From NCBI GenBank assembly GCA_964526745.1, contig CAZGMQ010000009.1, forward strand, positions 929 through 64,928: a stretch of DNA of 64,000 bases, in the 5' to 3' direction. Both the position numbers and the translations under genes were made by a program. This DNA comes from an uncultured Verrucomicrobiota bacterium (lineage in GTDB: Bacteria > Verrucomicrobiota > Kiritimatiellia > CAIQIC01 > Lenti-01). Below, one piece after another: positions 43,251 through 62,508 of this stretch. A model generated the notes under the pieces. It ran no database searches. It saw only the letters and a program-made list of their open reading frames with translations, and was not told the origin of the DNA. The first letter of the stretch is position 1. Every line of letters starts with the position of its first letter.

Positions 43251-43516
43251 CGCTTTGCCCTCCTTCAAGCCGCGATTCTTTTGGTCGGCATTTTGGATCC
43301 AAAACAGCCCAAAATCCCTCCATAAATAGTTCCACACCCCTCCGCCGGTTTTGCCGCGAAAAATCGAAAAAACGGCCGAAAAAAGTCCTTGTTGATCAAA
43401 AAAGCAACGGAGGGAAATGATTGAAGGACGTGGAATCAGGTTGAATTAGGTTGAATGTGCCTTTAAACAGGGGCTTTTCCTAGCGTGGCGCCTCGATTGT
43501 CATCGATCAGAATGAA

Positions 43517-43574
43517 AAGGGTCTGAATGGGATATTCGTAAGGGTCTGGATACTGGCGTCTAAGGGTCAGAAAT
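43517..43574. repeat. Three direct AAGGGTC(T/A)G(A/G)AT repeats spaced 22-23 bp, at the left border of the phage-derived block. More copies lie inside the next 1.6 kb.
   Basis: aagggtctgaat (43517), aagggtctggat (43540), aagggtcagaaat (43562, overlapping the dam stop). Further AAGGGTC copies near 43661, 44051, 44195, 44527 (doubled), 45085. Confidence 0.6.
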
Positions 43575-44331
43575 TCTGGATGATCAGCTCTGATCTCTGG
43601 ACCTTTCGGCTTGCTGCTGATGACCCGACGGAATACCCCAGCTTGACCTCTGTCTGCTGGAAGGGTCTAAAAATTGACCGCACCTCTTTGCAGTTCCCCA
43701 GGGACAGAAGGAACCTTCCCTTGATGCCGGCCAGCAAATCCGCCAGGGCCTGGAACCGATCGAATGAGACCGCGTAGTCATCTGTTGAGTGAAAGTATGG
43801 CGGATCGATGAAGAACAGCGTGTGAGGCCGATCGTAGCGCGTCAGGCAGTCAAAGGCATCCAGATGCTCGATGTTGACCTTCTCCAAACGCCAGTGAACA
43901 GCCAGAAGGGTTTCTGCAATAGAACTCAGGTTCAGGGCCGGTGACCCGAGCGTTTTCATCCCATAGACCCGGCCTTTCGGTTTTCCACCAAAGCAGAGGC
44001 GTTGTAGATAGAAATACCGAACAGCTCTCTGAATATCCGTAAGGGTCTCCGGCCGCTTCATTTTCTCGATTTCGAATATCTCTCGGGACACTACGGCCCA
44101 CTTGTAATACTCTATGAAGGGTTCCAGATGATTCTGAATGACTCTCCAGAATGTGACCAGCTCGGAGTCTGCGTCATTGATCACTTCTGCCTTGGAAGGG
44201 TCCTTTTGGAATAGGACCCAGGCGGCTCCACAGAAGGGTTCGCAGTAGCAGACGTGATCCTCGGGGATCCGGGCAATGATTCTTTTGGCGAGGCGGCTCT
44301 TCCCGCCGAGGTAGGCAAAGGGACTATTCAT
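43567..44331 (-). CDS. dam: DNA adenine methyltransferase (Dam / D12 class).
   Basis: FAYLGGKSRL, CEPFCGAAWV (motif I) and FIDPPY (motif IV). Confidence 0.8.
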   Translation of the reverse strand: MNSPFAYLGGKSRLAKRIIARIPEDHVCYCEPFCGAAWVLFQKDPSKAEVINDADSELVTFWRVIQNHLEPFIEYYKWAVVSREIFEIEKMKRPETLTDIQRAVRYFYLQRLCFGGKPKGRVYGMKTLGSPALNLSSIAETLLAVHWRLEKVNIEHLDAFDCLTRYDRPHTLFFIDPPYFHSTDDYAVSFDRFQALADLLAGIKGRFLLSLGNCKEVRSIFRPFQQTEVKLGYSVGSSAASRKVQRSELIIQNF

Positions 44332-44487
44332 CAGAACGAACTTCCTATACCGTGCTTCCTGACTTCGGGCCAGTCTGGAGGGACCGTCATTGGCACGGAC
44401 TGCCGGGAATTAATCTTCCGGTGGATTGAGTGGTTGCACCCACTGAATCGGTTCCCCGGACACTCTCACACGAGAGGCCGGAAATGG

Positions 44488-46003
44488 TTATATCAGGCCG
44501 TTGATGGCATTGGCTAAAAGGGTCTGTTCGATTGGGTCTGTGTCCGGAGGCTGGAGCAGCTGGTCCTGGATGGCGGATAGTGCTGCTTCTGGATTTGTGC
44601 TTTCGCGGAGGATCCGCGGGATGTTGGCGTAGCGTTCGCGGAAGTGCCGCGCGACGGCCGCGGTGCCGGCGTCTGCAATGGCATCGGCCTGGTCAGCATT
44701 ATCGGTGTTCGCGGCGAAAATAGGGGCTGCCGCCGACCTCCCGGTCGGCGGCGAGGACTGTCTGCGGGAGATGCTGTATGCGCTGGACGGGGATGCCGAG
44801 GCGTTCGGAGGCCGTTGAAAGACCATCATCGGTTGGTTCAAGGCCTGCCTCATACAGATTGGAGAGGAGTTCGGAGGTGCGCTTCACCTCTTCGGTCGTG
44901 TCGCCGGCGAAGCTGATTGTGGGAGCCCGGCCAGGATAGCCATTGAGTTGCAGCCAGGGTGCCACCACCTGATGTCGGAGCGTATTTCCAAGGTTGCGAG
45001 AATCAAACTTCCGAATGTCATCCCGGACATCCCCCTGGAGATCCGCAGTCCCGGACCCCATTCCGGTCGGTGATGTTTCGGATGAAAGGGTCTGCCCCAG
45101 GATCAGCCTGGAGATCTCCCGCCGGCAACTGGTCTTAAACTTCTCGAAACCCTCCCCTGAGTCGCGGGCCGCTTCTTTCAGCTCGATCGAAGAGTCACCC
45201 GAAAGGACCAGGCCGCCCAGCTGCGTGGCATATGAAATGGCCGACTCAAGGATCCGGCGATCATGGTTGTCATTTGAATCCGTTTTCCCGACCATGAACG
45301 GCGAGCCGTAGCGGCCGAGGAATCGTGCCCACCAGGTCGTGGCCATGGCGGAGAGCAGCCAGAGGAAGAAGATTGCCCGCATGGGTCCACCGAACCGGTC
45401 CGGGGATGTCAGGGTATGGCCTCGATGCAGGATGTATCGTGTGGAGTCCAGAGGCTCCGCATCGATGAATCCACAAGTTTCTTTCTCTGTGACAATGGCC
45501 TGTCCATTCTTATCCCATCCGATGAGGCGATACGGAACCGGAACCAGTTCGGAGATCATATAGCGCCGGCCCAGCTCCGGACATGCCGGATCCGCAGGGG
45601 CAAACACCTTTTCGGCGATTGAAAGCGGGAAAATCACGGCATCCAGAAGATGATTGCAGCACAGATCTAGAGTATCGGATTGACGAAGCATCAGTTCTGC
45701 CGCATCGGCAGCCTCGACATCCTTCGGGTTGTCTTTGTCCCATGGCGCTACCATGATGGCATCGCCAATGACGGCATTCTTTCGCTGGAAAAGGGTTGCC
45801 TGAATATGGGTATCTTGCAGGACTACATCCCGGCAGAGTTGCCACAGCTGGCTGGAATTGCCCTGTTCCGACATCCGGATGATAGCCGCGACGCGATCGA
45901 CATCCAAATTGGTGGTGCGGAGCGACTGTTCATCGCGGGTTGAAACCGGGGTCAGACGACCCTGGCTGGGTGCTTTGGTTTTCTTTTTCGGTTTTTTAGA
46001 CAT
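44488..46003 (-). pseudogene. Mu-gp29-like portal protein (DUF935), apparently split by a frameshift near 44700-44760.
   Basis: 434 aa ORF 44699-46003. A roughly 70 aa continuation in another frame (ORF 44488-44853) overlaps the same DNA. Together they give about 505 aa, the expected portal length. Confidence 0.5.
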
Positions 46004-46012
46004 GCCGTTCTC

Positions 46013-47524
46013 CTATGACAAAAGGTTTCCGCTGAATGGGGTGCCGATGTTCACGGCCTTTGCTTCGATCTTCCCGCCCCGCTTGTTCAGGGCGTAGAGG
46101 GCGAGCTTCCCGCCATCGAATGTGTCCGCGTGATTGCCGGCGTTATCCAATTCGTTATCAAATCCGCCCTTTACCTTTTTAGCCAGGCGCCGATCCTCTT
46201 TGACCCACCTATCCGGTGGCATGGCGATTTGAGAATCTTCGTAGACCTCGACATACCGCTGGCCGGTATATGTTTTCATATTCATCGATTGACCTTGATA
46301 GTCGATCGTTTCGGATGAAGAGCACAGCATCACACGGGTGTATTTCCGGAACTCTTTCCGCACATTTGCGGCATAGTATTTTTCATTCGATGAATCCACA
46401 GCCAGACCGGAAGCCCGTCGTCCCGTCGCATCTTGACATGATTCAAGGATTTCACGCAGAAGGGCTTTTGCCTCATCCGGGTTTGCCTCTTTGAAGCGGA
46501 ATACCAGCCGTTCCACATATAGGTACTGCGACACCTTCTGCGTCACGACGATGCTGGAAGGGTTAGACATCTTGTTGGTGGTGGTTGCGACATCATACCC
46601 GATGGCATATGGATCGCTGGTCATCGATATGGCCCAATCCGCCGGCAGATCATTTTCGGCTGCCACGCAGCTCATGCGGTAACCGAGTTCCTGTGCCGCT
46701 CCGATAGCGGACAGCGGAATGGCTGCGGTGCCGCCGACGATGAATTTGAGCGCATAGGAGCGGTCCCAGGTGTCCCTGTTGAAATAGTTCTTGCGATGTT
46801 CATCCGGAGAAATTTGAGCACCGGATTTCATATCGTACAGGTGAATGCCAGCCAGATCGGCATCCCAAGCATCGACGCGATGGACAGGGATACCTAGCTG
46901 GGATGTGTAGGTGTTCCCGCTTGGATTATTTTCAAACTCTGTTCCGGGTTCTGGGGCGGCCAGCTCGTAGGAGAAGTGGGCGTCATCTGACGGTGGCGTG
47001 GTAGCCATGATGAGATGGAATGTTGGATCCCTAGAGATGATAGGTTCCATTTCACCGAAGAGAGCGCGGAAATCCTTGATGAATCCGATTTCATCCATGA
47101 AAACCCAGCCAGAGTATCCGCGCGCCGTCGCGATATTTGGTGCGATGACCTTCATTCGAGAAACAACGTGTTCAGAATGGCGGAAGGTGACTTCGAGGCG
47201 GCCCTGATCGAACAGATCCATTAGATCACTATCTTCGAGTCCTTCCCCATTCGATTCAATGATGACCCCATTGTCTATCGAGACATCACGGAGCGTTTGT
47301 AACAGTTCGCCAAAGATCTGCGTGGCTTTGAACGGAAGTTCAGATCCGACAGATAACGATGCCGATACGAATGTACAAAGGATGCCAGGATTCTCCAGCA
47401 TGACCTGAAGGATCTTGAAAGCAAAAAGGGTGGATTTTCCGGCCTGGCGCCGCCAGAGAAGCAGGCACACGCGCAGGGGTTTCATCCAGCGCGAAGCAAA
47501 CTTCTGATAGCGGGTGAGTTCCAT
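46013..47524 (-). CDS. Terminase large subunit.
   Basis: Walker A WRRQAGKST, Walker B VFMDEIGF, C-terminal nuclease-like acidic motifs; 503 aa. Confidence 0.75.
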   Translation of the reverse strand: MELTRYQKFASRWMKPLRVCLLLWRRQAGKSTLFAFKILQVMLENPGILCTFVSASLSVGSELPFKATQIFGELLQTLRDVSIDNGVIIESNGEGLEDSDLMDLFDQGRLEVTFRHSEHVVSRMKVIAPNIATARGYSGWVFMDEIGFIKDFRALFGEMEPIISRDPTFHLIMATTPPSDDAHFSYELAAPEPGTEFENNPSGNTYTSQLGIPVHRVDAWDADLAGIHLYDMKSGAQISPDEHRKNYFNRDTWDRSYALKFIVGGTAAIPLSAIGAAQELGYRMSCVAAENDLPADWAISMTSDPYAIGYDVATTTNKMSNPSSIVVTQKVSQYLYVERLVFRFKEANPDEAKALLREILESCQDATGRRASGLAVDSSNEKYYAANVRKEFRKYTRVMLCSSSETIDYQGQSMNMKTYTGQRYVEVYEDSQIAMPPDRWVKEDRRLAKKVKGGFDNELDNAGNHADTFDGGKLALYALNKRGGKIEAKAVNIGTPFSGNLLS

Positions 47525-48087
47525 TAATCCTTTTCCATGTCAGCCATGAGGTCGATGAGCTGCTGAACCTGGATTGACCTCTCAGCGCCGGAAGTGGCGA
47601 TCTTCTGAGCGCGTTCATCCTTAAACCAGGAGAGGAATTGGTTTGCGACCTGGAAGCGGAACTTGTCGCGATCCAGCTCTGCTGCATCCTGGGCGAGTTC
47701 GAGGCGCTGCTTGTCGAGCTCCAGGCTTTTGGAGCGGGTGACGGCCTGTTTGACGGAAGCCAGAACCTTGGCGGCCTTGATGGGATCCAGATCTGGATCC
47801 GAAAGGCTGTCGACCAGGTCGAGCATCGTGCGGTCGACCATATCGAACCCATCGGCCTCGATCTCCCGGCGGATGGATTCCGCGCGGGTCCGACGCTCTT
47901 CCAAATTCCGCTGCTGTTTCAGCCAGGCTTGATAATGACGGGGAGACTTCTTGAATGAAGAGTAGTTCTGAGGCTTGTAGGGTCCATAGCCGTGACCCTT
48001 CAGCCAGGCATTGAGCTGCTTCCAGTTCTTACGGTCCCGGATCATGAAACAGAGTTCTTCCCGGACTTCGTACGGGAGGCGCGTCAT
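47524..48087 (-). CDS. Mu-gp27-like DUF3486 protein (small terminase-like).
   Basis: Internal start MTRLPYEVREELCFMIRDRKNWKQLNAWLKGHGY... resembles Mu gp27 (ITRLPQELRDEL...). The ORF-track 5' extension is out of character. Confidence 0.6.
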   Translation of the reverse strand: MTRLPYEVREELCFMIRDRKNWKQLNAWLKGHGYGPYKPQNYSSFKKSPRHYQAWLKQQRNLEERRTRAESIRREIEADGFDMVDRTMLDLVDSLSDPDLDPIKAAKVLASVKQAVTRSKSLELDKQRLELAQDAAELDRDKFRFQVANQFLSWFKDERAQKIATSGAERSIQVQQLIDLMADMEKD

Positions 48088-48100: not shown

Positions 48101-48382
48101 TTAAGGGTACTGGCGCTCACGGAACGTGACTCCTTCTGAGGTGGCCTTATAGTCGACCAGGCCGGACAAGGGACGATTGACGCGCTTGACCAGGCCGAAG
48201 CCTTCCAGGACCGCAAGGGCGTCGGCCACATGCGATTCATCAAACTCGCCATCCACGGCACCCGCGCGCCGGATCCGGTTGGTCAATGTTTCAATGGAGA
48301 ACTTATGCGCTGCCCGATCGGCCAGATGGCAGATCAGCGCTTCGCGGAGCTGTTCTTTTCGCTGTGTGTCTTGATCCTTCAT
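48101..48382 (-). CDS. Hypothetical small protein.
   Basis: ORF track; probable start MKDQDTQRKEQL. Confidence 0.35.
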   Translation of the reverse strand: MKDQDTQRKEQLREALICHLADRAAHKFSIETLTNRIRRAGAVDGEFDESHVADALAVLEGFGLVKRVNRPLSGLVDYKATSEGVTFRERQYP

Positions 48383-48386
48383 TGAA

Positions 48387-48731
48387 TCAGCCTTTCGTGT
48401 CCTTGGAGATATGAGTCTCAAGCATGCCTTCGATTCGTCCCAGTCGATTAGCCGTGTCGATCCCGTTTCGGTTACTTGTTGTAATAAGGGTGTCGATTTT
48501 CCCCTTCAGATCTCTTGTTTCCTGGCGCATAGGAGCGAATTCGCGATCGATGCGGGCGTGTACCCCATTGATCTCCGAAGTCAGCTCCGTTTTGCGCACA
48601 TATTTCTTCGCCATTTCTTCCGGGACCGGCGGGGATCGCTTTTTGAATCCGAGGGCTGCTGCGATCGATGCCAACGATGCGCAGAGCACGGTGATGGGCC
48701 AAATGACATCTCCTGGTGTGATATCGCTCAT
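48387..48731 (-). CDS. i-spanin (Rz)-like protein: N-terminal TM helix plus periplasmic coiled coil.
   Basis: Internal ATG at 48731 gives MSDITPGDVIWPITVLCASLASIAAALGFKK... followed by heptad-rich sequence. It starts 2 nt after the upstream gene's stop. Confidence 0.5.
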   Translation of the reverse strand: MSDITPGDVIWPITVLCASLASIAAALGFKKRSPPVPEEMAKKYVRKTELTSEINGVHARIDREFAPMRQETRDLKGKIDTLITTSNRNGIDTANRLGRIEGMLETHISKDTKG

Positions 48732-48733
48732 TT

Positions 48734-49972
48734 CTATTCCTCTGAAAAAGATGCCGACGCTGGCCGGCCGCTGGGCATGGCAGCAGCCGGGGCGACGGCA
48801 AGATTGGTTGATGTGTTTCGAGTGGAAATGGGCGGGACGGCCGAGCCGATGGCTTGGATGGTGGCGACATCGGACGGCCCGGCCCATTTGAAGTGATAGA
48901 AGATCCTGGCGACTTCGCCGCGGTCGGCTCCCTCTTTGATCCAGGCATAGGCCACATCCGGCTTTCCGGGACCTTCCAGGCCGGAACACAGCTGCTGAAT
49001 GATCATTCCTGTGTCACTGACATTCAGGCGGTTGACCGGGAAGGTGTCGGTAATCTTGAAAGGATGGACGGCCGCCCAGTCAAATGGTGCCGGGCAGGAG
49101 GACGGGCGGGATCCGTGATTGTAGATCAGTTTGAACCCGAGCGCATCGAATTCGGAAGCCATTTGCTTTTCGAGCTGAGTCCCGTAGCTGGTGCGGCCGG
49201 ATTCGGCCACGGGCTGCAGCAAGACGTTGGCCGGCCCACCGGCTTTGACTACACCAATGGCCCAGCTGACCATCTCCGGGGAGTGCTGCAGATCCACGCC
49301 GGCATCGCCATACTTCCGCGGTCCGCCACGGCTTCCCTGGTTGTCGTTGAAGACGCTGTTGAAAACCCACATGCCATTTGCACGGCAATGGCGCAGCAGC
49401 AGAGCATAGGCCGCCTCGGTCCATGCTCGGAATTCTGTTTTGTTGGCGGCGTAACGGCCCCAGGATGAAAACTCAATGTCATAGATTCGGACGCCCCATA
49501 ATGTGCAGGCGTCGAGATCCGCCTGGAGAATAGCCAGGGACTCTTCCAGAGTGGCGCCGCCATTGGCCCAGCGGTTTGCCCTCCCATAGCCAGCGAGGGT
49601 CCGGCCGACCTGCAGCGGAGGCAGCGCGGCGGATGGCGCCGGCGGGTCAACATTCGGGTCTATGACTGGATCTGGGTCCGCTTCATCCTGGTTGACCACC
49701 TCGGCAAAATTCGCGGCGATCCCGTTCAGTTGCTCCATCAGGGCATCGTTCGACATGACGGCCTCCGCGAGGGCCACGACATTCGGGTTTCCGGCGATGG
49801 CGGAAGCGATGGCAACAGCATCAGCCGGATCGATGGAGGCCGCAACGGACCCGATCTGGCCGACCAGGGCATTCGGATTGAGATCCAGCTGGTTTGTCGA
49901 TGTGCAGCCAACGCCGCTCCACCCGATCAGAGCAAGCAGCAACGCGATGACTATAAATTTCATGTCCTTCAT
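48734..49972 (-). CDS. Secreted lipoprotein, glycoside-hydrolase-like (possible cell-wall hydrolase).
   Basis: Lipobox LIGWSGVGC; 412 aa; start overlaps the caspase-like gene's stop. Confidence 0.4.
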   Translation of the reverse strand: MKDMKFIVIALLLALIGWSGVGCTSTNQLDLNPNALVGQIGSVAASIDPADAVAIASAIAGNPNVVALAEAVMSNDALMEQLNGIAANFAEVVNQDEADPDPVIDPNVDPPAPSAALPPLQVGRTLAGYGRANRWANGGATLEESLAILQADLDACTLWGVRIYDIEFSSWGRYAANKTEFRAWTEAAYALLLRHCRANGMWVFNSVFNDNQGSRGGPRKYGDAGVDLQHSPEMVSWAIGVVKAGGPANVLLQPVAESGRTSYGTQLEKQMASEFDALGFKLIYNHGSRPSSCPAPFDWAAVHPFKITDTFPVNRLNVSDTGMIIQQLCSGLEGPGKPDVAYAWIKEGADRGEVARIFYHFKWAGPSDVATIQAIGSAVPPISTRNTSTNLAVAPAAAMPSGRPASASFSEE

Positions 49973-50691
49973 TCTTGATCCTCTTTGGGTTGGAGCTTCA
50001 TTGCCGGGAGATCCCGGAAAGTGGTGGCGCCGTATTCCTCATAGTGCGGAACCTGGTTGCGCGGCATGATGGCCGCAGCGGCATCGAACCATTCCTTATA
50101 AGAGAGCTTTCCGTCGAAAGTGTTGAGCAGCGCTTGAGTGAAGACGCCGCCCGAGTCATCGCCATAGGAGGATTCACCATCTCCGGATCCGCCGAAGTGG
50201 ATCAGAGAGGCCCGGAAGCTGCGAGGCATGGATCCGGAAATAGATCGGGCCCGAAAATTGGTGCCGGAATTGCAGGTGTCAGAAATGAACAGGATCCGGA
50301 TGCCGGCCGGCGCCTCTTTCCAGAGCTTCCGGAGGATGTCATCCGAGAGCTGGCCATCCCATAGGCAAAGGGTCTCATCGAGGCCGTCTTCCTCATCGCC
50401 GTCGGTGTCCGGGATCTGTCCGCCGTGTCCGCTTATATATAGGATAAAGAGATCGCCAGCCTTCATCTGCTTCCAGGCCTTCCGCGTGGCGCGGATCAGA
50501 GCCTCTGATGTGGCCTCCCTATTGTGGAAGAGATCCGTCTGGATTCCCCCCCCCGAGCAGAGCAGTCCGAACATCTGGGCATCCACATCGCATCCGGGGC
50601 AGTTGCCATTCCATCCATCATAGGCATTTGGATCCACATTGGTGAGGCCGGCCACAACGGCATGGGCATTCTTCGGAAGGTTTTTACGCAT
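49969..50691 (-). CDS. Standalone caspase-like peptidase C14 domain protein.
   Basis: LFILYISGHGGQ (catalytic His) and ILFISDTCNSG (catalytic Cys, D-x-C-x-SG). N-terminal HAVVAGLTNVDPNAYDGWNGNCPGCDVDAQMF caspase-fold start. 240 aa with no signal peptide. Confidence 0.7.
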   Translation of the reverse strand: MRKNLPKNAHAVVAGLTNVDPNAYDGWNGNCPGCDVDAQMFGLLCSGGGIQTDLFHNREATSEALIRATRKAWKQMKAGDLFILYISGHGGQIPDTDGDEEDGLDETLCLWDGQLSDDILRKLWKEAPAGIRILFISDTCNSGTNFRARSISGSMPRSFRASLIHFGGSGDGESSYGDDSGGVFTQALLNTFDGKLSYKEWFDAAAAIMPRNQVPHYEEYGATTFRDLPAMKLQPKEDQE

Positions 50692-51295
50692 GATATGGGC
50701 CTTTCAGATCGAGACGGTATTGAAGGCCCTCAGCGGTCAACGCCAGCGCGGAGATGTCATGAAGGCGCCCAGACTCCACCCGCTTCTCCGTGGTTCGGGG
50801 CGTGGGGTTATTTTTGTTCCAGGCATCATGATTGGCGCTCATGCCCGGTTTGCTCCAGGCGCCGCGGACGGCCTCGGTGCAATACCAGGCCCATTCCGCT
50901 CCGGCCTGGCTCTTGAACCAATCGCCCAGGAGGGCCTTTGCGATGAGGCGCGGATAGGCGTACCAATCATAGGGCATTCCTTTGGCGTGCTCCAGGAACC
51001 ATTCGTTGGCCATCTTCCGGTCCAGATCCGTAGCGCCCGGCATGCGAAGGACGGCGATCTTGACGCCGCGATCGCGCATGTGGTTTTCGTAGGTTTCGAT
51101 CGGCGTGAGAACGCCGCCCTTCAACATGAGTGCTTCGCCAATGAACAGCTCGCCGCGATAGCGGCAGACCATGGCGTCGTGGCTTCCGCGGGATCCGATG
51201 GCGCGCTGGATGAACCAGCTCGTGACGCCGGGGGAATAGCGATGGATGATGTCGCCCGGAAGAAGTGCCTCCCTATTAATCAGAGGAATCGTCAC
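50684..51295 (-). CDS. Permuted-papain-fold NlpC/P60 (YiiX/DUF830-like) peptidase; candidate endolysin.
   Basis: N-terminal GDIIHRYS...GSHDAMVC and C-terminal WYCTEAV Cys motif. GTG start after a GGAGAT Shine-Dalgarno. No signal peptide. Confidence 0.5.
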   Translation of the reverse strand: MTIPLINREALLPGDIIHRYSPGVTSWFIQRAIGSRGSHDAMVCRYRGELFIGEALMLKGGVLTPIETYENHMRDRGVKIAVLRMPGATDLDRKMANEWFLEHAKGMPYDWYAYPRLIAKALLGDWFKSQAGAEWAWYCTEAVRGAWSKPGMSANHDAWNKNNPTPRTTEKRVESGRLHDISALALTAEGLQYRLDLKGPYHA

Positions 51296-53726: not shown

Positions 53727-53786
53727 GTAAGTATATGTAAGTTTTCCTTGACTGTTTTCTTATACGTTCTTATATTGCCTTACATG
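53724..53786. promoter_or_regulatory. Divergent promoter/operator region between the repressor and the Ner-like gene.
   Basis: Inverted repeat CATGTAAG (53724-31) ... CTTACATG (53779-86); each arm overlaps one of the two start codons. Direct repeat ATGTAAG at 53735. TTGACT (-35) at 53748 and TATATT (-10) at 53771. Confidence 0.55.
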
Positions 53787-54002: not shown

Positions 54003-54892
54003 GTCGAAAATACAAGATCATCGGGTTCGAGTGGATTGAAAAGACCAGCCTGAAGCCGCATCCGGATGCGCAGTTGCCGATGGCGCCGACGGACCAGGCA
54101 TTCCTGAAGAACAGCATCCAGAGCGGAGGTCTGATCCAGCCGCTGCTGGTGCTGGAGAAGGCCGACAAGCTGGATGGGATGTTTCAGGTGGTGGATGGCT
54201 GCAACCGATTCGACAGCGATCCAATCGACGGAAAATTCCCCTGCGTCCTGATCCAGTGCGACAATGTGCGCGAAGTGGCCCTGGAATGCCTTGGCACCGG
54301 TCGCCAGCGGTCGGCCGGGAACCGGATTCTGTCCTACATGGAATTGCATCGGGCAGAGGTGGTCAAGGCGGCTGAATTTGGGGCGATTGCGGCGGCCGGA
54401 AATTCGTTTGGGGTGTCACGTGACACCCCAAAAATACAGGGGAATTTGTCCAATTTTACCTCCGAAGCTATCGCAGCGACCCTTTCAGTCAGCAAAAAAG
54501 ACGTTCTCCTTGCCATCGATTTGCTGATGTGTTTGGAGCGGAAATGCACGGCGCCGGTGAAGGCCGGGGCGCTGATGACACCACCGCGGAAACTGGACCT
54601 GAAAAAGAAGGAAGACCAGGTCTATTTCGAGCTGCTGAAGCAGACACATGCGGGCGTGATGGGCGGGGGCTCGCCAATCCGTCGCTGGAAGGCCGGCCTG
54701 GCGGGCAAGCATTCGCAGGCCGAAGGGCGGACGGCCATCGATTACGCGATGCTGTTCAAGGAAGGGCTGCACCATCTGCGGTCGGCAGCGAAGCACTGGG
54801 AGGACATCACGTTCGAGGACCGCGCAACGCTGGTGGAACTGGCATCGCAAGTCGGCGTGCTGCTGCCGTCTGACATCAAGCGGGTGCTGTGA
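53999..54892 (+). CDS. ParB-like nuclease-domain protein.
   Basis: N-terminal ParB/Srx fold pattern (PLLVLEKADKLDGMFQVVDGCNRF); high GC3. Confidence 0.55.
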   Translation: MSRKYKIIGFEWIEKTSLKPHPDAQLPMAPTDQAFLKNSIQSGGLIQPLLVLEKADKLDGMFQVVDGCNRFDSDPIDGKFPCVLIQCDNVREVALECLGTGRQRSAGNRILSYMELHRAEVVKAAEFGAIAAAGNSFGVSRDTPKIQGNLSNFTSEAIAATLSVSKKDVLLAIDLLMCLERKCTAPVKAGALMTPPRKLDLKKKEDQVYFELLKQTHAGVMGGGSPIRRWKAGLAGKHSQAEGRTAIDYAMLFKEGLHHLRSAAKHWEDITFEDRATLVELASQVGVLLPSDIKRVL

Positions 54893-55430: not shown

Positions 55431-57302
55431 ATGTCCACCCGCCCGTACAACGACCGCGAACAGGCCCGGATTGCCGTATGCAAGAAGGCGCAGGCGCTGA
55501 TTGCCGACGGGGCGACAATGAAACGGGCGGCAAAGGCGGCGGGAACCTCCCAGGGCTCGCTGGAGCGGTGGATGCGGGCATGGCGTAGTGAAGGGCCGGA
55601 CGGCCTGCGGGACGACTACGGTGCGGTGGGGCGGCCGGCGGTGGCGGATTGCCTGGACCAAACATCCATCGATTTCATCCGTCGCAAAGCGGCGAAGTGC
55701 GGCAGCATGGCGCTAACCTATCAGTTCTTCGTTGACGATCCGGCCTGTCCCCAGGAACTCCGGGATTATCTGATTCCCAGGCTAACCAGTGGCAAACCCC
55801 TTTCCCTTCCTCTTTCCCTGCGCCGCGCGGCGAATGTGATTCCCGATCTGGCCGCGCGGCATCGAAGCGATGTCGCCTTCGGGCACATCGGCTTCAAGAC
55901 ACGTCACAGCGATATGGTGATTGATCCGCGCACGGGCCAGGAGCGCCGTCTGATGGCCGGCGACATTTACCTTTCTGACGATATGTCCACCAATCATCCC
56001 TTCTGGTTCGAGCTGCCCGATGGCGAGATCAAGACGCGGGCCGATCGGGGGAGCAAGCTTGCGGAGCGCTTTGGCGTGGCCGTGGGCCGCCAAGGTCTCT
56101 ATACCATTGATGCTCGCGGCAAGTGGCTCGGGTGCGAACTGATCGCCCGCCCGACGGATGCCTATACCTCCGCGGATGTCCTGCGGCACTTCCGCCGGAT
56201 CCTGGCGGAGTTCGGCTTGCCGCGCATTGCCTGGATCCTCGAAAAGGGCGTCTGGATGGCCCGGACGGTCGATGGCCGCATGAAGGTGCTCATTGACGAC
56301 GATGCTCGTGAAGAGACCGTCGCCGGTCTTTCCACGCTTGGATTCAGCGTCAATCATGTCCACACCTCCGAGGGCAAGGCCCTGATTGAGGGGGCGTTCC
56401 ACCACTTCCAGGATATCTGCGACCTGATGGAGCTTCCGAACGTGGGCCGCAAGCGTGGCGAGATGGAGCGGGTTGAAAAGGTGATGACCCGCATCCGCAG
56501 CGGCGTGATCCATCCGCGCGATGCCGGGATCCCGCATGTCACCGCCCAGGTCCTGAATCTGAACAAGGCCCAGGTGTTCTTCAATGGCAAGCACAAGAAT
56601 GGCCGCATCCAGCACGGCGTTCCCGACGAGGTCTGGCTGCGCGACACCACCACTCATCCGCTCCGAAAACTTGAACCTGGCCACATGGGAGTCTTCATGC
56701 CCGCAAAATACGCAACGATGATTCGCCAGGGGCATGCTGACAAGACACTGGAGGGAACGACCTATCGCTTCCACAACGAGGTGTTCGGACGGCTGGGCGC
56801 GGGATACCGCCTCGCAATAGCATTCGATCCAGGCGAACCGCAGGCCGGCGCCGAGGTCTACAATCTGGAGACCGGCAGCCGGAACATCGACCGCCATTCC
56901 CCCAACGCGTGGATCTGCCACGCGGAACTGGAGATCGACTCGCCACTATATGGCTACTCGCCGGAAGTGGCCGAGGCCACCCGCCGGAAGAAGAAGCACA
57001 CCCGCGCCTTCCAGAGCGCGTATGCGGGCACCGGCCTCTTCGGCAAGGGCGCGGGCCGAGCCATCGAGCGGCGCGAGGCCGACGGCCGCCTGATCCGCAT
57101 GGAAACCAATATCGGGGATGCTGGAGGAACGGATCGACCCGGTTCGTGTCGTGCCCTACCGGTCGGAACAGAATCCAGCATCCCCACCAATCGAACGGTC
57201 CGCAGGAAAGAACTCACAGCTAAGCAAGTCATCAATGCAGAGGCCAAGGCCGATGCCCTGGAGGCTCGCCTGCGAGATCGAGGAATGTTGCTGCCGCAAT
57301 GA
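55431..57302 (+). CDS. Mu A-like protein (putative transposase) with an N-terminal HTH. The DDE core is not confidently recognised.
   Basis: 623 aa. N-terminal HTH (GATMKRAAKAAGTSQGSLERWMRAW). Lies upstream of a MuB-like ATPase. The ORF-track start at 55224 is an out-of-character extension. Confidence 0.5.
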   Translation: MSTRPYNDREQARIAVCKKAQALIADGATMKRAAKAAGTSQGSLERWMRAWRSEGPDGLRDDYGAVGRPAVADCLDQTSIDFIRRKAAKCGSMALTYQFFVDDPACPQELRDYLIPRLTSGKPLSLPLSLRRAANVIPDLAARHRSDVAFGHIGFKTRHSDMVIDPRTGQERRLMAGDIYLSDDMSTNHPFWFELPDGEIKTRADRGSKLAERFGVAVGRQGLYTIDARGKWLGCELIARPTDAYTSADVLRHFRRILAEFGLPRIAWILEKGVWMARTVDGRMKVLIDDDAREETVAGLSTLGFSVNHVHTSEGKALIEGAFHHFQDICDLMELPNVGRKRGEMERVEKVMTRIRSGVIHPRDAGIPHVTAQVLNLNKAQVFFNGKHKNGRIQHGVPDEVWLRDTTTHPLRKLEPGHMGVFMPAKYATMIRQGHADKTLEGTTYRFHNEVFGRLGAGYRLAIAFDPGEPQAGAEVYNLETGSRNIDRHSPNAWICHAELEIDSPLYGYSPEVAEATRRKKKHTRAFQSAYAGTGLFGKGAGRAIERREADGRLIRMETNIGDAGGTDRPGSCRALPVGTESSIPTNRTVRRKELTAKQVINAEAKADALEARLRDRGMLLPQ

Positions 57303-57334: not shown

Positions 57335-58330
57335 ATGGCAACGCTCAAAAATAAAGACAAGAAAAAGACCCCAGCGGAAGAGCTGGTGGCACTCGCCCAG
57401 GTCATTCGCGAATGGCAGATAGGCAAAGGGTATTCCATCGCAGCGCTGCTGCGGAAATACGCAGGCCTCGGCTCCGACCGGACCTATAACCGGCTCGTGA
57501 CCGGCGATACGTCCGACCTGAATGTCGAGAAACAGCTGCTAAACTATCAGACCGTCTGGTCACTCATTGAAGCCGTCGGCGACAAAGATCGCGATCGGGA
57601 AGAGTTCTATGATGATTTCTCCTCTGCCGTTCAGTTGCGCCGGGCCGCCATGGAAGTTTTTGTTGAAACTGGGATCAACCGGTTTCTCCTGGTCCAGGGC
57701 GACACCGGATCCGGCAAAACCACCGCTGCCCTGCTGCTCCAGAAGCGCTATGGCGCCCATCGTGTGCGGAGGATTGAGCTCTCGCCGTGGCTGAATGACA
57801 GCCCGCTGGCCTTTCTGGTTATGATTATTGAAGCCTTCGGCCAGGAAGCCCCTCACGGCAGTCAACAATGCTGGAAAAAGGCTGTTGAACTGCTTGGCGC
57901 CGGCCGCTGCTGCCTTGTCTTTGATGAGCTGCACCACGCCGGACCACGGGTCCTCAACACCATCAAGAGCCTGATCAACGCCACACCAGGCGAATTCATC
58001 GGCCTCACGATGAAAACCCTGTGGTATCGCCTCGAAAAGAAGAGTTATGAAGAAGTCCGGCAGCTGACCGGCAACCGCCTCGCCGAGCGGATCCAGCTCG
58101 ATCGGATGAATCAATCCGACCTGGTCAAGTATTTGAGCCGGCGCCTTCCGAAGCTGGAAAAGGGAGCCGACTTCGGCGCCGCCACCATGCTCGCGGAAAA
58201 CTCCAGAGGCAAAGGAAACATGGCCTTTGCTCGAGCCGTCTGCCGCGCCGCTGTCGAGCGATACGAAGACAAACCCATCACCATTCAGGATTTCGCGGCC
58301 GTCGTGGCCTCGGAACGCCAGCGCAGATAG
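57335..58330 (+). CDS. MuB-like AAA+ ATPase (transposition helper).
   Basis: N-terminal HTH-like segment, Walker A GDTGSGKTT, Walker B CLVFDELHH. C-terminal AENSRGKGNMAFARAVCRAA resembles the MuB C-terminal region. Confidence 0.6.
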   Translation: MATLKNKDKKKTPAEELVALAQVIREWQIGKGYSIAALLRKYAGLGSDRTYNRLVTGDTSDLNVEKQLLNYQTVWSLIEAVGDKDRDREEFYDDFSSAVQLRRAAMEVFVETGINRFLLVQGDTGSGKTTAALLLQKRYGAHRVRRIELSPWLNDSPLAFLVMIIEAFGQEAPHGSQQCWKKAVELLGAGRCCLVFDELHHAGPRVLNTIKSLINATPGEFIGLTMKTLWYRLEKKSYEEVRQLTGNRLAERIQLDRMNQSDLVKYLSRRLPKLEKGADFGAATMLAENSRGKGNMAFARAVCRAAVERYEDKPITIQDFAAVVASERQRR

Positions 58331-58341: not shown

Positions 58342-58968
58342 ATGGCAAAGAAAATATATATCGATCCCGAAGGCAGAGCGATTCCCCCCAAATACGTGTC
58401 GCCCTATGACAAGGCCCGCGACCGCATTGCGCGCCAGATCCACGCGGACTGGGAGAAAGAGGAAGATCGCCTGCGCAAATTGAAGGCCCGGACCCAAGCC
58501 AGGATTCAAGCGCTGCGGGAGCTGGCGGCAAACGACAGCGACGTCAAGCTCGGCGGATCCGCCGGTTATCTCCAGTTCCGGAGCTTCGATGGCAAGACCA
58601 TCATCCGCCTGGAGAACGTCAAACAGTACGAATTCGACGAAAAGATGGAGATGGCCCTGCAGCTGATCAACGAGGCCATCGACGATATGTCCGGCAAGGC
58701 CAAGCGGTCCAGGAGCGTCAATGTGGCCCAGCTGCGGAAGATTGCAACGGCCGCCTTCCAGCCGCGCGGGAAGAACGGGAAGCTCGATCGTCAGCGCGTG
58801 CTCGATATTACCCGCCTCGACATCGACCACCCCAAGTGGCGCCGCGCCTGCGAGCTGATCCGCGAAGCCGAGCGCGTCACCGGCCATCGGCAATACATCC
58901 GCGTGGCCACCATGGAAGGACTGCCCCCGAAGCAGCTTCCCATCATTCTCGACATCTCGAAAGTTTAG
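58342..58968 (+). CDS. DUF3164-like Mu-type early protein.
   Basis: 208 aa in the position and size typical of DUF3164 in Mu-like early regions. Confidence 0.4.
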   Translation: MAKKIYIDPEGRAIPPKYVSPYDKARDRIARQIHADWEKEEDRLRKLKARTQARIQALRELAANDSDVKLGGSAGYLQFRSFDGKTIIRLENVKQYEFDEKMEMALQLINEAIDDMSGKAKRSRSVNVAQLRKIATAAFQPRGKNGKLDRQRVLDITRLDIDHPKWRRACELIREAERVTGHRQYIRVATMEGLPPKQLPIILDISKV

Positions 58969-58982: not shown

Positions 58983-59210
58983 ATGGAAGTCAAAGAAGTC
59001 ACACTGAACGGGAAGACATACCGCGGACCGCAGCTGAATTCGGCCAAGGGCCGTCCATACAAAATCAACGTGTATAGGGAAAGCTCCAGAATTGGAACCA
59101 GTGGAGGTCCGGTCGGGATGTCGTGGCAGACGTGGATGACCTACACCTCCGCCCCGGCCGCCGTGGCGGCCATGGAAGAACTCATTGAGCAGGCAGAAAG
59201 GGAAGGATAA
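58983..59210 (+). CDS. Small hypothetical protein.
   Basis: ATG after an AAGGAG Shine-Dalgarno; 75 aa. Confidence 0.4.
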   Translation: MEVKEVTLNGKTYRGPQLNSAKGRPYKINVYRESSRIGTSGGPVGMSWQTWMTYTSAPAAVAAMEELIEQAEREG

Positions 59211-59463
59211 CGGCATGGAAACAGCAGCAAGAACGATTGAAGCGCCTCGAATTGAACTGCGGAAGAAGCGGATGCCGCGGACGCGGGCGGACTTCCGCCT
59301 GGCCGCGATCTGGCTGGCCCAGCACGCCGCCAAGGCCGGCAACGCCCTGTCGGCCTGCCTGGCCGGCCCCTGCGCCGACGACGAAGACAACGGAATCTGC
59401 CTGGGCTATCGCGATGGTCGCGACCAGCCCTGGCCGAAAAAGAAAGAAGAGGAACGGGCATGA
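59185..59463 (+). CDS. Small hypothetical protein.
   Basis: ORF track (TTG start; an internal ATG near 59215 is preferable). Confidence 0.3.
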   Translation: MSRQKGKDNGMETAARTIEAPRIELRKKRMPRTRADFRLAAIWLAQHAAKAGNALSACLAGPCADDEDNGICLGYRDGRDQPWPKKKEEERA

Positions 59464-59654
59464 TTATGATTATTGCAGCGATCGCGATTCTGGTGTGGGC
59501 AGGCATCTGCCGAAACATCCACCTCGATCTTGTCACCGAGATCAACAAGCGGACGGGAGATCTGTTGATTCCCCGTTCATTCACCATGCGTTTCTTCACC
59601 TGGGGCTGCGCGGGGATCCTCGCTGTGGCCCTGGCGTCCATCGCGCGGCTCTAG
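59460..59654 (+). CDS. Small two-TM membrane protein.
   Basis: ATGA overlap with the upstream gene; hydrophobic MIMIIAAIAILVWAG. Confidence 0.4.
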   Translation: MIMIIAAIAILVWAGICRNIHLDLVTEINKRTGDLLIPRSFTMRFFTWGCAGILAVALASIARL

Positions 59655-59839
59655 GAGAACACCATGGGCGATGGAACATACAAACGGACGCGACGGGACA
59701 ATCGGAAGACAGTCTATCGCCCCGGCAAGCTAGGGAAAGGGCTGATCGTGCAGGCGGACAAAACCGTCTATCGCAAGATGCCGAACGGGTCTCTTGTCCG
59801 CATGGGCAAGCTGGAAGAGCGCACCGGAGAAGTGATGTA

Positions 59840-60388
59840 ATGAGCGACACCCGTCAACAGAAAGCCATGGCCGGCGCCGCTTGCGCCCCCCTCAGCCGGA
59901 TCCAGAAGCGGAACATCTGCATGCTGGCTGCCGAGGCGTGGGAGCGCGCCGGCCGTCCCTTCTTCGATCCGAACATGGATCCGGCCTTTGCCCTGTGCAA
60001 AACCTCAGCCCTCGAGCTGTGGCGGCATGAGCAGCAGGAACGCCTGACCGGCCGCAAGCATCTGACCCGCTGCGGACAGGCCGACTATCTTCTGTTGAAG
60101 TCCCACTTTGAACGCCTTGCCGGCAAGGCCCGCCAGGCAGAGGCAGACGAACGGCGCATGCCCGGCGATGACAACCGCCAGGCTCAAGCCGTGCTGCGCC
60201 GGGAGATATCGGTGGCACGCCGGCAGATCGCGGATCCGCGACGCTATGCTGCGACTATTGCCCAGGCCAAATACAAAACCGGCCTCGACAACCTCTCTTC
60301 GAAACAGACATGGACCATCATTTTTGACCTGCGCCGCGCGGCGTCGGGTCGCAAGAAAAAAGCCAATCAACCCAACACCCCATTTTGA
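59840..60388 (+). CDS. Hypothetical early protein.
   Basis: ATG at 59840 overlaps the upstream stop (TAATGA); it is the C-terminal part of ORF-track 59237-60388. Confidence 0.35.
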   Translation: MSDTRQQKAMAGAACAPLSRIQKRNICMLAAEAWERAGRPFFDPNMDPAFALCKTSALELWRHEQQERLTGRKHLTRCGQADYLLLKSHFERLAGKARQAEADERRMPGDDNRQAQAVLRREISVARRQIADPRRYAATIAQAKYKTGLDNLSSKQTWTIIFDLRRAASGRKKKANQPNTPF

Positions 60389-60401
60389 GAGGAGACCAGG
60401 C

Positions 60402-60623
60402 ATGGAACTCAAATTGAATAATGGATCGACAATTCGCCCCGCTGAAGGGGATGTAATCTGCCACCGCGGCAGCAGCATCACCGCCCAGCTTCTAGCCCGC
60501 AGTTGCGCCGGTAAGCCGCTAGACGGCTCCCGCGCCCATGGACAGGCACAATTCCCTCTCTCCAGTTCGCGGGCCTTCGCGGGGGGTATAAAGCGCTATT
60601 TAATCGGACGGGGGACAAAATGA
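60402..60623 (+). CDS. Small hypothetical protein.
   Basis: ATG after a GAGGAGACC Shine-Dalgarno. Confidence 0.35.
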   Translation: MELKLNNGSTIRPAEGDVICHRGSSITAQLLARSCAGKPLDGSRAHGQAQFPLSSSRAFAGGIKRYLIGRGTK

Positions 60624-60898
60624 GCCAGCCCAAACGAATCGTTGCCATTCTCTTCGAAGAAAACGCAGACGAACGCGGCAACATCACCCTCAAAAAGTTG
60701 ACGACTGCTCAATGGGTCACCGTCGCCTATATTGCCAATGCCATGACCGTCTCCGAGCAGACCATGTATCGCCTGATTGTGGATGGCCAGGTCATGCCCT
60801 ACCACCGCGTCGGCATCCAGATCCGCGTGGATGTCGCTGATTTCTATGAATACTACAAGAAATGCGAGCACGTTGAATACGAAAGGCCAGGTGCGTGA
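60620..60898 (+). CDS. HTH DNA-binding protein (excisionase/Mor-like).
   Basis: VAYIANAMTVSEQTMYRLIVDGQVMPYHRVG helix-turn-helix. Confidence 0.45.
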   Translation: MSQPKRIVAILFEENADERGNITLKKLTTAQWVTVAYIANAMTVSEQTMYRLIVDGQVMPYHRVGIQIRVDVADFYEYYKKCEHVEYERPGA

Positions 60899-61233
60899 TG
60901 ATGGAACAAATGACACTGGTCCCTCGCAAAGAGACTTCCGCCGAGGCCGATGCCCCGGTCCTGTCCCGGCATCTGTATCTGGCAATGGAATGGCGCAAGC
61001 GCAAGGAGCTGATGGAGGCTCTCGGCTGGCCTGACTGGCGGATCCGCCATGCGGCCGAAGCCGCCGGGGGCGATATCATTTTTGGGCAGCGTGGAATGAA
61101 GCACATCCGCCATGCCACCCAGGAGGAATACTGCGCCTTCTGCAACACATTCAAGAGCCAGATCGCGGCCAACAGTCTCCGCCTGGTAACCACGCAGCAG
61201 AAATGGCACAAATTCAACGCAGGCCCGGCATGA
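60895..61233 (+). CDS. Hypothetical protein.
   Basis: ORF track; ATGA-type overlap with the upstream gene. Confidence 0.35.
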   Translation: MMMEQMTLVPRKETSAEADAPVLSRHLYLAMEWRKRKELMEALGWPDWRIRHAAEAAGGDIIFGQRGMKHIRHATQEEYCAFCNTFKSQIAANSLRLVTTQQKWHKFNAGPA

Positions 61234-61541
61234 ATGAATCCAAAGCCGATCAAGAAGTCGAAGAGGCCATCCGGATGATTGGCGCGGCGCCAGGTGTTCA
61301 ACCAAAACTGTATTTCCGGACAAGAAATCTTCCATGGTATGGAAAAATGTTTCGCGGATTTTCCACAGTATGGAAGAAATGTTTCCATAGTGTGGAAAGT
61401 GATCAGCCGCGGGAACACTGCGCAGATATAATGAAACGCGCCTTTGCAGCGTATGGCTATGCCGACGCTTCGCCTTGGAACCCGACACCGCGCGCCACTC
61501 TCCGCAAACTCCGCTCCGGATCCATGGAGGAAGTGTCATGA
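61203..61541 (+). CDS. Hypothetical protein carrying an in-frame 78-bp insertion of the palindromic repeat (copy C).
   Basis: The ORF reads through 61326-61400 as ...NLPWYGKMFRGFSTVWKKCFHSVES... Confidence 0.3.
   Translation: MAQIQRRPGMNESKADQEVEEAIRMIGAAPGVQPKLYFRTRNLPWYGKMFRGFSTVWKKCFHSVESDQPREHCADIMKRAFAAYGYADASPWNPTPRATLRKLRSGSMEEVS
61326..61400. repeat. Three-box palindromic repeat element, copy C.
   Basis: TCTTCCATGGTATGGAAAAA / TTTTCCACAGTATGGAAGAAA / TTTCCATAGTGTGGAAAG; same orientation as copy B. Confidence 0.85.
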
Positions 61542-62112
61542 AAGACCGGTGCAGGAAATCCAGGATCGATAGGCGTCAGTTCATTCGGATGCGGAATGGG
61601 AGCTTAATTGTTGTATTGGGCACCGTGAGGTGTGAAATCGCACGTGGATTCACCCCGCCGGGCCTGACGGAATATATCCGAATGCTTGATCTGGATCTGC
61701 CTGTGAACTCCTTATTTGATTTCATGGCTCCGAAGGTGTCGGCATCCAACCCGTGGATTGGGAGAACGTCATGCTGAAGGTACTAGGGACATTGTTATTT
61801 ATTGGAATCGTCGTCGGCTTGATGGCGTGGTGGCCGTCGCGTGAGAAAACGCTGGGTGAGTTGAAAGATGAGCTGGAGGCCAGGGATGAGGCATGAGCGT
61901 CCAACAGCAGGCGGATGCGATGCAATGTCGTGGTCATACGGTGAGCCAGAACCATGCAGTCGAAAGGCACTATGGAGAATTGACGGCCACGATCTTTGTC
62001 TGCGTCACGCTCAAATTGTAGCGATGGGTCAGGCGGTTAAAAGCAATTCGGCTGTTCCAATAAACAGGCCGTGTAAAAGCGATGGAATTCTATTCATTCA
62101 GAAGAAAAGAGG

Positions 62113-62508
62113 TTGAGGATGTTCTACGAGGAAAGAATTATCGAAGGTCAGTTGTGCTATCGCACATCTCCGAAGCACGGATTTCAACCCTGTACGCTGG
62201 AGCAGCTCACAAAAAAGCTGACCAAATCCCGCGAAGAAATCGAAAAGCTGAAATCCGATGTGGAATTCCACGCATGGGAAGTACCAGGCTTCTGGCAGGG
62301 CGAACTCGACAAGGCAAACGGGAGGGCCGCCAAATATCGAACAAAGTGGGCAGAGGTGAGTCGGATTCTCATGGGGCTACAGGCTGAGCTTGTGGCTTCT
62401 TCCAACCCCGCCGTCAGGGGCGGCGCACCTTGTGTGCCGTACTCTGGACGTGCTTGTGTACGCCCAGCATGGGCGCGAACTAATGGGGTTAAAGTCCCCT
62501 GTATGTGA
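62113..62508 (+). CDS. Hypothetical protein whose 3' part is probably interrupted by the group II intron.
   Basis: The ORF continues into intron-like sequence after about 62432-62456. Confidence 0.3.
   Translation: MRMFYEERIIEGQLCYRTSPKHGFQPCTLEQLTKKLTKSREEIEKLKSDVEFHAWEVPGFWQGELDKANGRAAKYRTKWAEVSRILMGLQAELVASSNPAVRGGAPCVPYSGRACVRPAWARTNGVKVPCM

Follow-up and report, generated by a model that had tools for sequence, protein, structure and literature searches.

A Mu-like prophage from an uncultured Verrucomicrobiota bacterium, with packaging and head genes on opposite arms and a portal gene in two frames

We analyzed 64,000 nucleotides of contig CAZGMQ010000009.1 (assembly GCA_964526745.1, positions 929 to 64,928) from an uncultured Verrucomicrobiota bacterium, a stretch referred to here as the window, and examined the phage-derived element that begins near position 43,400. 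This element is a Mu-like prophage of a known kind, belonging to a poorly annotated family of the Planctomycetes-Verrucomicrobia-Chlamydiae (PVC) group in which the modules stand in a non-canonical order. Very probably, the 43.4 to 64 kb region of the window represents the left 20 kb of a single, apparently whole transposable prophage, and the head genes of that prophage lie beyond the window.

Two arms of a Mu-like prophage

Three features by which Mu-like phages are recognized were found: a MuA-type transposase, a MuB-like ATPase adjoining it, and a Mu-type head module, the last partly on the overlapping contig L019. The canonical colinear Mu order (early, lysis, packaging, head, tail) was not followed, as the packaging and lysis-candidate genes are on the other strand and on the other side of the control region. 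Divergent transcription, already proposed in a preliminary description of the same stretch, was confirmed, with opposed helix-turn-helix (HTH) genes on either side of a short control region (Table 1). In order from this region, the leftward arm comprises the repressor-like HTH gene, probable lysogeny-side accessory or moron genes (the secreted protein, the PHROG 4506 protein and the caspase-like and lipoprotein pair), then the candidate endolysin and spanin, and finally the packaging genes, with the gene at the small-terminase position followed by the terminase large subunit (TerL), the portal and Dam. The rightward arm comprises the small HTH gene, the ParB-like gene, the MuA/TnsB-fold transposase, the MuB-like ATPase, DUF3164 and small genes. 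Past a 1.8-kb group II intron come further small genes and one that resembles RNA ligase, ahead of the MuF, G, protease/scaffold, major head and adaptor genes. Tail genes come next in relatives.

The protein that the preliminary description called A-like gave no rve or Mu-transposase Pfam match and no PDB match by sequence, and its identity was established by fold. An AlphaFold model based on 35 homologues (predicted local distance difference test score, pLDDT, 80) has N-terminal HTH domains, an RNase H-fold core and a beta-barrel. Foldseek matched this model to TnsB (8rdu and 7svw; type V-K, Tn7) and to the MuA transpososome (4fcy) with expectation values (E) of ~1e-12, and to the MuA core (1bco and 1bcm) at ~1e-8, with IstA and retroviral integrases lower in the list. 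Residues D183/D184, D249 and E320 (numbering from 55431) were invariant in the 35 homologues; they are a candidate DDE triad, for which their spacing would be suitable. The labels Dam, DUF935-type Mu portal, TerL, MuB-like ATPase and DUF3164 were all borne out by family matches.

The preliminary description reported no capsid or tail genes, which holds inside the window but is a product of the window's edge. Metagenome contigs from Ace Lake (Antarctica) encode exactly the proteins of the window and break at the intron, at 62454 and 62580; the source contig and many others stop there because metagenome assemblies break at a group II intron. The host, a PVC-group bacterium, probably also comes from Ace Lake. 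Inspection beyond 64 kb was possible on tiling contigs with 99.95-100% identity. Contig L007 matched window positions 62009-64000 at 99.95%; the match takes in 448 bp of unique exon upstream of the intron. Beyond the intron, L007 runs on for 350 bp with two small plus-strand genes. L020 was 100% identical to window positions 62454-64000, and L019 (Ga0075121_1001890) was 100% identical to both L007 (469 bp) and L020 (2896 bp), so that position x of L019 corresponds to window-equivalent 64159+x. The head genes, which include MuF, G, protease/scaffold, major head and adaptor, start ~2.6 kb past base 64,000. Capsid genes are thus missing from the window because its edge and the assembly-breaking intron interrupt the block.

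The intron itself showed all the parts expected of a group II intron, namely domain I-IV and V/VI RNA and a reverse transcriptase (RT)/maturase open reading frame (ORF) in domain IV. The Rfam matches group-II-D1D4-3 (RF02001, 105 bits) and D1D4-1 (RF01998, 44 bits) were placed at 62559-62723 and 62741-62807. On L007 we found an ORF with RVT_1 and GIIM domains, and a domain V/VI match (RF00029, 43 bits) at the 3' end of the intron, which lies at window-equivalent ~64278. The intron reads in the same sense as a small phage ORF (62119-62456), at whose 3' end it is inserted. No homologue of this ORF was found in the relatives to fix the exon junction, and its spliced reading frame is ambiguous.

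A tblastn search with TerL gave no match among 50,697 deposited phage genomes (INPHARED), and relatives were found elsewhere: TerL was 71-78% identical in IMG/VR, 57-79% in IMG/VR and other public assemblies together, and 34-79% in metagenome-assembled genomes (MAGs) of the PVC group. A TerL-alignment scan of GTDB genomes returned MAGs of Verrucomicrobiota, Kiritimatiellae, Lentisphaeraceae, Opitutaceae and Prosthecobacter, and one labelled Eubacteriales. Relatives with 57-79% identical TerL have the layout of the window, three of them on single contigs, with Dam, portal, TerL and lysis-side genes leftward to the element end and early, head and tail genes rightward. On IMGVR_UViG_3300028593_000041 (33.2 kb; loci L013, L016 and L022) the order from left to right is terminus, Dam, portal, TerL, the gene at the small-terminase position, a few small genes and the control region, followed by the early operon, MuF, G, protease, major head, adaptor, a 1672-aa tail-fibre-like gene and a tape-measure-like gene. 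Except that Dam is absent, a second contig (L011/L017) repeats this order, and L019 is colinear with both. MuF followed the portal in 0 of 11 relatives' loci, down to 34% TerL identity. Uncultivated relatives such as 3300028593_000041 and CAYTEK010000032.1 (a Verrucomicrobiota MAG) resemble the window in module order, terminal sequence, subterminal repeats and the portal split described below; relatives differ from it in the accessory genes that separate the control region from the gene at the small-terminase position, in lacking Dam in some cases and, in those examined, in showing no intron. We describe a Mu-like family of Kiritimatiellota, Verrucomicrobiota and Lentisphaerota in which TerL and portal lie opposite the arm with MuF and the capsid genes.

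A close relative was found at two different host sites. Over the compared stretch 9000-12672, loci L024 and L025 differ at a single base, and each covers both arms (1943-12672 by gene calls). They split at a single point just past the conserved terminus, with YchF/SMC host genes in one and LpoB/DUF1425 host genes in the other. Identical phage, ending at the same place in two host contexts, indicates that both arms are one mobile unit.

Two further loci deviated. In L035 (1-12385, JGI 3300037455; portal 52% identical), Mu gp36-like and large tail genes lie directly upstream of the small-terminase-position gene, TerL and portal on one strand, so module order varies within the wider family. L023 (9940-12672 of a 340-kb contig, JGI 3300053716) carries an L024-type portal, Dam and terminus with the right flank of L024, and is joined ~60 bp upstream of the portal start to unrelated AIRS_C, DUF4011 helicase and IS91-type transposase genes; it may be a genuine truncated remnant or a chimera produced in assembly.

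In the single prophage that we propose, the decision between lysogeny and lytic growth would rest with the repressor-like protein and the small HTH protein in Cro/Ner position, opposed over 57 bp. The rightward transcript would supply the transposase and the MuB-like ATPase for replicative transposition of the MuA/MuB type, and splicing of the intron from it would lead to expression of the head and tail genes. Full-length portal would require +1 recoding close to the stop of the first portal ORF, and headful packaging would use the TerL and portal of the left arm.

The portal gene in two frames

The portal gene is divided between two frames. The first ORF (ORF1, 44699-46003) encodes 434 amino acids (aa) ending in ...GGSPYFRREHR*, and the C-terminal domain follows in the +1 frame to 44488, encoding ...DQADAIADAG...RHFRERYANIPRILRES...ANAINGLI; with ORF1, the ORF listing gives a 121-codon ORF in another frame. 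A conceptual fusion of ORF1 and the +1 frame was colinear over its whole length with sister-clade portals (<=45% identity) that are encoded in one ORF of 500-520 aa, among them Kiritimatiellia and Opitutaceae proteins.

The split reported in the preliminary description is real, but it is not a frameshift mutation private to this genome. All 35 close portal clusters (50-100% identity) are 434-473 aa long and stop 2-14 residues after an FF(R/G) motif. In the DNA itself, the +1 break was present in seven lineages (the window, L036, L011, L013/L024, L035, L037 and L038), which are all the close ones in which the portal C-terminal domain could be located, and the domain was in frame in five distant lineages (L041-L045). 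The split thus goes back to the ancestor of the clade and has been kept, and it is no evidence of decay. In L035 (JGI 3300037455), the +1 C-terminal domain is fused to ~240 more residues in a 317-aa ORF.

We compared the sequence around the break across lineages. Frame 0 showed synonymous variation only through the Arg-Arg-Glu codons, and the stop followed 2-10 codons later. A TTT TTT CGN run was present upstream of the break in 6 of 8 lineages; the window has TAT TTT CGC and L035 has no run. The last sense codon before the ORF1 stop varied (CGA, TTC, GGA, GGC or TTG), giving no uniform slippery motif, and cognate +1 re-pairing at that codon was not possible in any lineage. No ATG, GTG or TTG start in the +1 frame near the junction was conserved across the lineages compared. 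The ratio of nonsynonymous to synonymous substitution rates (dN/dS) of the 70-codon C-terminal ORF was 0.25-0.99, a weakly informative range as synonymous sites were saturated. Three mechanisms are candidates: shifting into the +1 frame at the stop codon, slippage of tRNA-Phe by +1 along the TTT TTT CGN run, and a split gene that makes two separate polypeptides.

We tentatively put forward a joint proposal, namely that the portal of this clade may be made by programmed +1 ribosomal frameshifting at or just before the ORF1 stop, in phages with a distinct transposable-phage architecture that places packaging genes opposite head genes. Recoding would give a short portal form (~435-470 aa, ending ...FFRRE-x2-10) and a full-length form with the C-terminal domain. 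Such recoding, if true, would take place at a new site within a core virion gene and might set how much of each portal form is made. The literature search turned up no account of frameshifting in a portal gene, and the clade-wide split offers a testable candidate for a new programmed frameshift in such a gene.

Left terminus and alternative explanations

The left end of the element in the window was placed at ~43,400-43,404 by homology to the terminus of relatives. The terminal sequence (A)CAGCAGCGGGGAGAAATGATTGAAGG...GGTTGAAT... stands at the point where L024 and L025 diverge and is conserved in four lineages; the relative's terminus is 5'-(A)CAGCAGCGG, and the homologous place in the window reads AAGCAACGG. 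The AAGGGTCTG repeats lie ~110-170 bp inside the element end. A TGAAAAGGGTCTG pair with 23-bp spacing is also found at the homologous ends of L011/L012 and of contig 3300028593_000041. The count of the repeat 9-mer across the window was not above chance, and it is the clustering and conservation that count; the repeats are plausible candidate binding sites for the transposase or an accessory protein. The preliminary description had the element end abruptly at the AAGGGTCTG cluster. An end nearby was confirmed, but the cluster as the exact end was ruled out by the comparison of L024 and L025, which puts the conserved terminus ~110 bp farther out.

Comparison of insertions thus located the left end and not the right one. 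Inverted AAGGGTCTG or terminal-motif copies were not found in any fetched locus. A scan of viral contigs with the pattern AAATGATTGAAGGN{8,16}TTGAAT gave 30 loci, in which the only related ones were three known packaging ends, and no contig had two copies of the pattern.

Host DNA directly outside the left end contains a cobalamin riboswitch (43075-43197, minus strand; RF00174, 70 bits) upstream of a secreted DUF4465 host gene (41561-43015). Farther into the host DNA, a 63-bp stretch is 87% identical between the regions ~41240-41302 and 24634-24696. One copy lies inside a host gene (40449-41624, minus strand) whose product has a weak match to the prepilin N_methyl family, and the similarity is probably a conserved motif.

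Several observations weigh against reading the window as the left part of a single Mu-like prophage. The head genes are linked to the window by metagenome contigs of the same population and not by the window's own molecule, and the source contig appears to end at ~65.2 kb. Tail genes and the right end were not recovered for the window lineage. The terminus of the relative, 5'-(A)CAGCAG, departs from the canonical 5'-TG. When we looked up the Dam of this phage, the host flank was identical on 7 of the 7 contigs carrying it, and this look-up yielded no other insertion site. The copy is therefore fixed at one site in the sampled population, and there is no sign of its recent transposition. The prophage could still be defective, since we infer both the splicing of the intron and the full-length portal.

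That the element has a full gene set and is nevertheless defective is unlikely, but it is an alternative to be taken seriously. The prophage would then sit at one fixed site with an intron in its early-to-late transcript, a portal that needs recoding and possible damage in the tail region or right end, and would form no virions. The single host flank with this Dam allele and the unseen tail module and right end are consistent with it, and L023 suggests that truncated portal and Dam remnants of a related phage may exist. On the other hand, all ORFs seen are open, the portal split is conserved clade-wide and is no private lesion, group II introns normally splice, and a close relative occupies two host sites.

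We regard as highly improbable a decayed remnant in which capsid and tail genes were deleted between portal and Dam, one of the readings in the preliminary description. In the window the portal is indeed followed directly by Dam and the element end. The head genes, however, exist on the other arm, and the order of portal, (Dam) and terminus is kept in the relatives with 57-79% identical TerL, which have head and tail genes. In a 2019 paper (PMC6920513), a comparable region of Kiritimatiellae that encodes a terminase and two Mu-like proteins was interpreted as a degraded prophage. With packaging and head genes on opposite arms and most genes escaping Pfam, prophage callers and at least one published survey (PMC6920513) can arrive at that call.

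Two unrelated insertions lying back to back, a packaging and lysis fragment beside a Mu-like early region, are hardly plausible. Packaging genes apart from head genes are unusual, and the guanine-plus-cytosine (GC) content dips at 52-54 kb. However, the lineages whose TerL is 57-79% identical show the same juxtaposition, so does an Opitutaceae MAG (L045, 45%), and the arms of L024/L025 moved jointly to a new host site. We give almost no credence to a satellite or mini-Mu that retains only transposition, packaging and lysis functions and uses the capsids of a helper, and the element should not be carried forward as a Mu-type satellite candidate: the gene content of the window taken alone would suit it, but contiguous late structural genes follow to the right from ~2.6 kb beyond the window, which is the result that the preliminary description had named as a refutation, and no short-form relative was found among three IMG/VR contigs of 21-33 kb, the two longest of which (29.5 and 33.2 kb; those examined) carry head genes.

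Remaining genes and comparison with known systems

Table 1. Features of the prophage, in window coordinates unless a position on contig L019 is given.
Feature	Position	Strand	Basis or remark
Prophage left terminus	43400..43470 (+/- 5 bp)	.	AAGCAACGGAGGGAAATGATTGAAGGACGTGGAATCAGGTTGAATTAGGTTGAATG, with TTGAAT/TTGAAG repeats
Three subterminal direct repeats AAGGGTC(T/A)G	43517, 43540, 43562 (43517..43570)	+	Spacing 23 and 22 bp
Dam-like D12 N6-adenine methyltransferase	43567..44331	-	PF02086 E 1e-21; PHROG 56 E 5e-77
Mu-type portal in two frames	44488..46003	-	PF06074 E 8e-61
TerL	46013..47524	-	PHROG 2 E 1e-14; weak Terminase_6N E 0.05
187-aa protein, gp27/small-terminase position	47524..48087	-	Position only
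106-aa conserved protein, no assigned function	48101..48421	-	Weak PHROG 436 E 0.002
114-aa protein, N-terminal transmembrane helix and coiled-coil-like C-terminal part	48387..48731	-	Translation, judged by eye
412-aa predicted lipoprotein, lipobox ...GVGC	48734..49972	-	Translation; accessory, paired with caspase-like gene
Caspase-like (Peptidase_C14) accessory protein	49969..50691	-	PF00656 E 3.5e-17
203-aa permuted papain-like (YiiX/Peptidase_C92, NlpC/P60-type) cysteine peptidase	50684..51295	-	Fold and homologue
319-aa phage protein, no assigned function	51556..52515	-	PHROG 4506 E 3e-36
217-aa secreted protein	52692..53345	-	Signal peptide read from translation
HTH_3 repressor-like protein, first leftward gene	53385..53726	-	PF01381 E 1e-5; PHROG 2328 'transcriptional repressor'
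Divergent control region, 57 bp	53727..53783	.	Between opposed HTH genes
72-aa small HTH protein, Ner/Cro position	53784..54002	+	Translation; weak HTH matches only
297-aa protein, weak ParB_N similarity	53999..54892	+	ParB_N E 0.026; PHROG 4715 E 0.008
623-aa MuA/TnsB-type transposase	55431..57302	+	HTH_28/HTH_23; weak PHROG 310; fold match
MuB-like AAA+ ATPase, directly after transposase	57335..58330	+	AAA_22 E 7e-13; PHROG 296 'DNA transposition protein' E 4e-12
DUF3164 protein, common Mu-like early gene	58342..58968	+	PF11363 E 1e-35
~12 small early/middle genes	58983..62456	+	Gene calls on identical contig L001; PHROG scan
Group II intron, 5' part, with RT/maturase ORF (62575 onward)	62457..64000, runs off window	+	Rfam
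RNA-ligase-like gene, between intron and head genes	L019 1064-1690 (window-equivalent ~65.2-65.8 kb)		PHROG 14301 E 1.5e-68
MuF-like minor head gene	window-equivalent 66.6-67.7 kb (L019)		PHROG 220 E 1e-37
Mu G-like gene	L019		PHROG 26
Protease/scaffold gene	L019		PHROG 328
Major head gene	L019		PHROG 1005 E 5e-41
741-aa adaptor-domain protein	L019		PHROG 195

At the control region, a sigma-70-like match (TTGACT-17-TATATT, 53748-53776, plus strand) was recognized by agreement with the consensus. As the TTG at 53748 falls in the -35 box of this promoter-like match, the small HTH gene was taken to start at 53784. The name Ner-like fits this gene in position, but its similarity is a weak HTH match and the identity with Ner was not upheld; what had been called ParB-like is likewise a weak similarity, in a gene that is conserved in relatives. 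An excisionase-like HTH gene (60620-60898) gave the sole PHROG match among the ~12 small early genes.

On the leftward arm, Dam is the last gene before the element end. It is absent from L011/L012, so we consider it accessory, and in L011 the terminus comes directly after the portal. The Pfam scan of TerL gave no match beyond that in Table 1. The 187-aa protein had been described as a Mu-gp27-like DUF3486 protein, a label that we dropped: it gave no Pfam or PHROG match even at E 5, and BLASTP detected no similarity to the small terminase of Pseudomonas phage Bise. Its gene lies directly upstream of TerL in every relative examined except L015, and we refer to it by that small-terminase position. 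The 106-aa gene was also found upstream of it in L033, L035, L037, L038 and L039.

The preliminary description also proposed a lysis cassette, from which one candidate cysteine peptidase was retained. The AlphaFold model of the 203-aa protein (pLDDT 88) had as its best PDB matches YiiX (2if6) and a Bacillus C92-type peptidase (3kw0), at E ~1e-5; its homologue P0183 carries PF05708, and His39 and Cys139 are invariant. The protein is a candidate endolysin that may act in lysis. The 114-aa protein gave no match in the family scan, and its features were recognized by eye; it may be a candidate i-spanin. A cassette as such was not upheld. Searches against PDB sequences returned nothing useful for the 203-aa and 412-aa proteins, and the 412-aa lipoprotein had no Pfam match. 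The caspase-like and lipoprotein pair, for which lysis, defence and host manipulation are candidate roles, was also seen in L037 (5754-8434), and L041 (2814-3869) has a caspase-like gene. The 217-aa secreted protein is a probable moron. GC content is 0.47-0.49 at 52-54 kb and ~0.57-0.60 on either side; the gene for this protein falls in the dip, which also takes in the control region and a portion of the PHROG 4506 gene, and such low GC is typical of acquired accessory genes.

Programmed +1 frameshifts are known from prfB, antizyme and the capsid and tail genes of Listeria phage PSA. The portal split resembles these in having a conserved +1 break near the 0-frame stop, with a downstream frame that encodes a conserved C-terminal extension. 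Unlike them, it has no uniform slippery motif, and it is known here from DNA and predicted proteins.

In Mu, as here, a MuA-type transposase (by fold in the window) is followed by a MuB-like AAA+ ATPase, the portal is of the PF06074 type, the first gene of the early operon encodes a small HTH protein and faces a repressor-like gene, and there are MuF, G, I-type protease/scaffold and T-type major head genes. The DNA-modification gene mom of Mu adjoins one end, a position comparable to that of Dam. The lytic genes of Mu all run in one direction (early, lysis, gp27, TerL, portal, F, G, I, T and tail), whereas in the window element the block from the lysis candidates to the portal is inverted on the repressor side, so that portal and MuF lie ~20 kb apart on opposite strands. 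The window element also differs in its transposase without an rve or Mu-transposase Pfam match, in the relative's terminus without TG and in a portal that needs a +1 frame change.

Phage Bise (OR683401.1), a Mu-like myovirus, gave the best INPHARED portal match (29% identity). One of its strands encodes Ner, transposase, Mor, TerS, TerL, portal, MuF and G, and the other carries the protease, capsid, tail and Dam genes. Compared with the window element, its packaging genes come after the early operon on the same strand, MuF and G adjoin the portal, and the portal is a single ORF of 536 aa. In the Bise record (L021), the block from the early genes to G is on the minus strand, and on the plus strand the protease, capsid and tail genes come immediately after a CI-like repressor. 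This odd order could be a real inversion or an assembly or linearisation artefact of a Mu-like genome.

In BcepMu of Burkholderia, early and late genes reportedly diverge from an internal control region, as they do here, and one late arm is said to hold contiguous lysis, packaging, head and tail genes. The divergent arm of the window element, in contrast, holds only lysis candidates and packaging genes and ends after portal and Dam at the terminus. With packaging and head genes on opposite arms, the layout is not that of BcepMu. The BcepMu-style prophage with structural genes beyond 64 kb, as suggested in the preliminary description, thus loses its BcepMu style and keeps both its divergent transcription and its structural genes outside the window.

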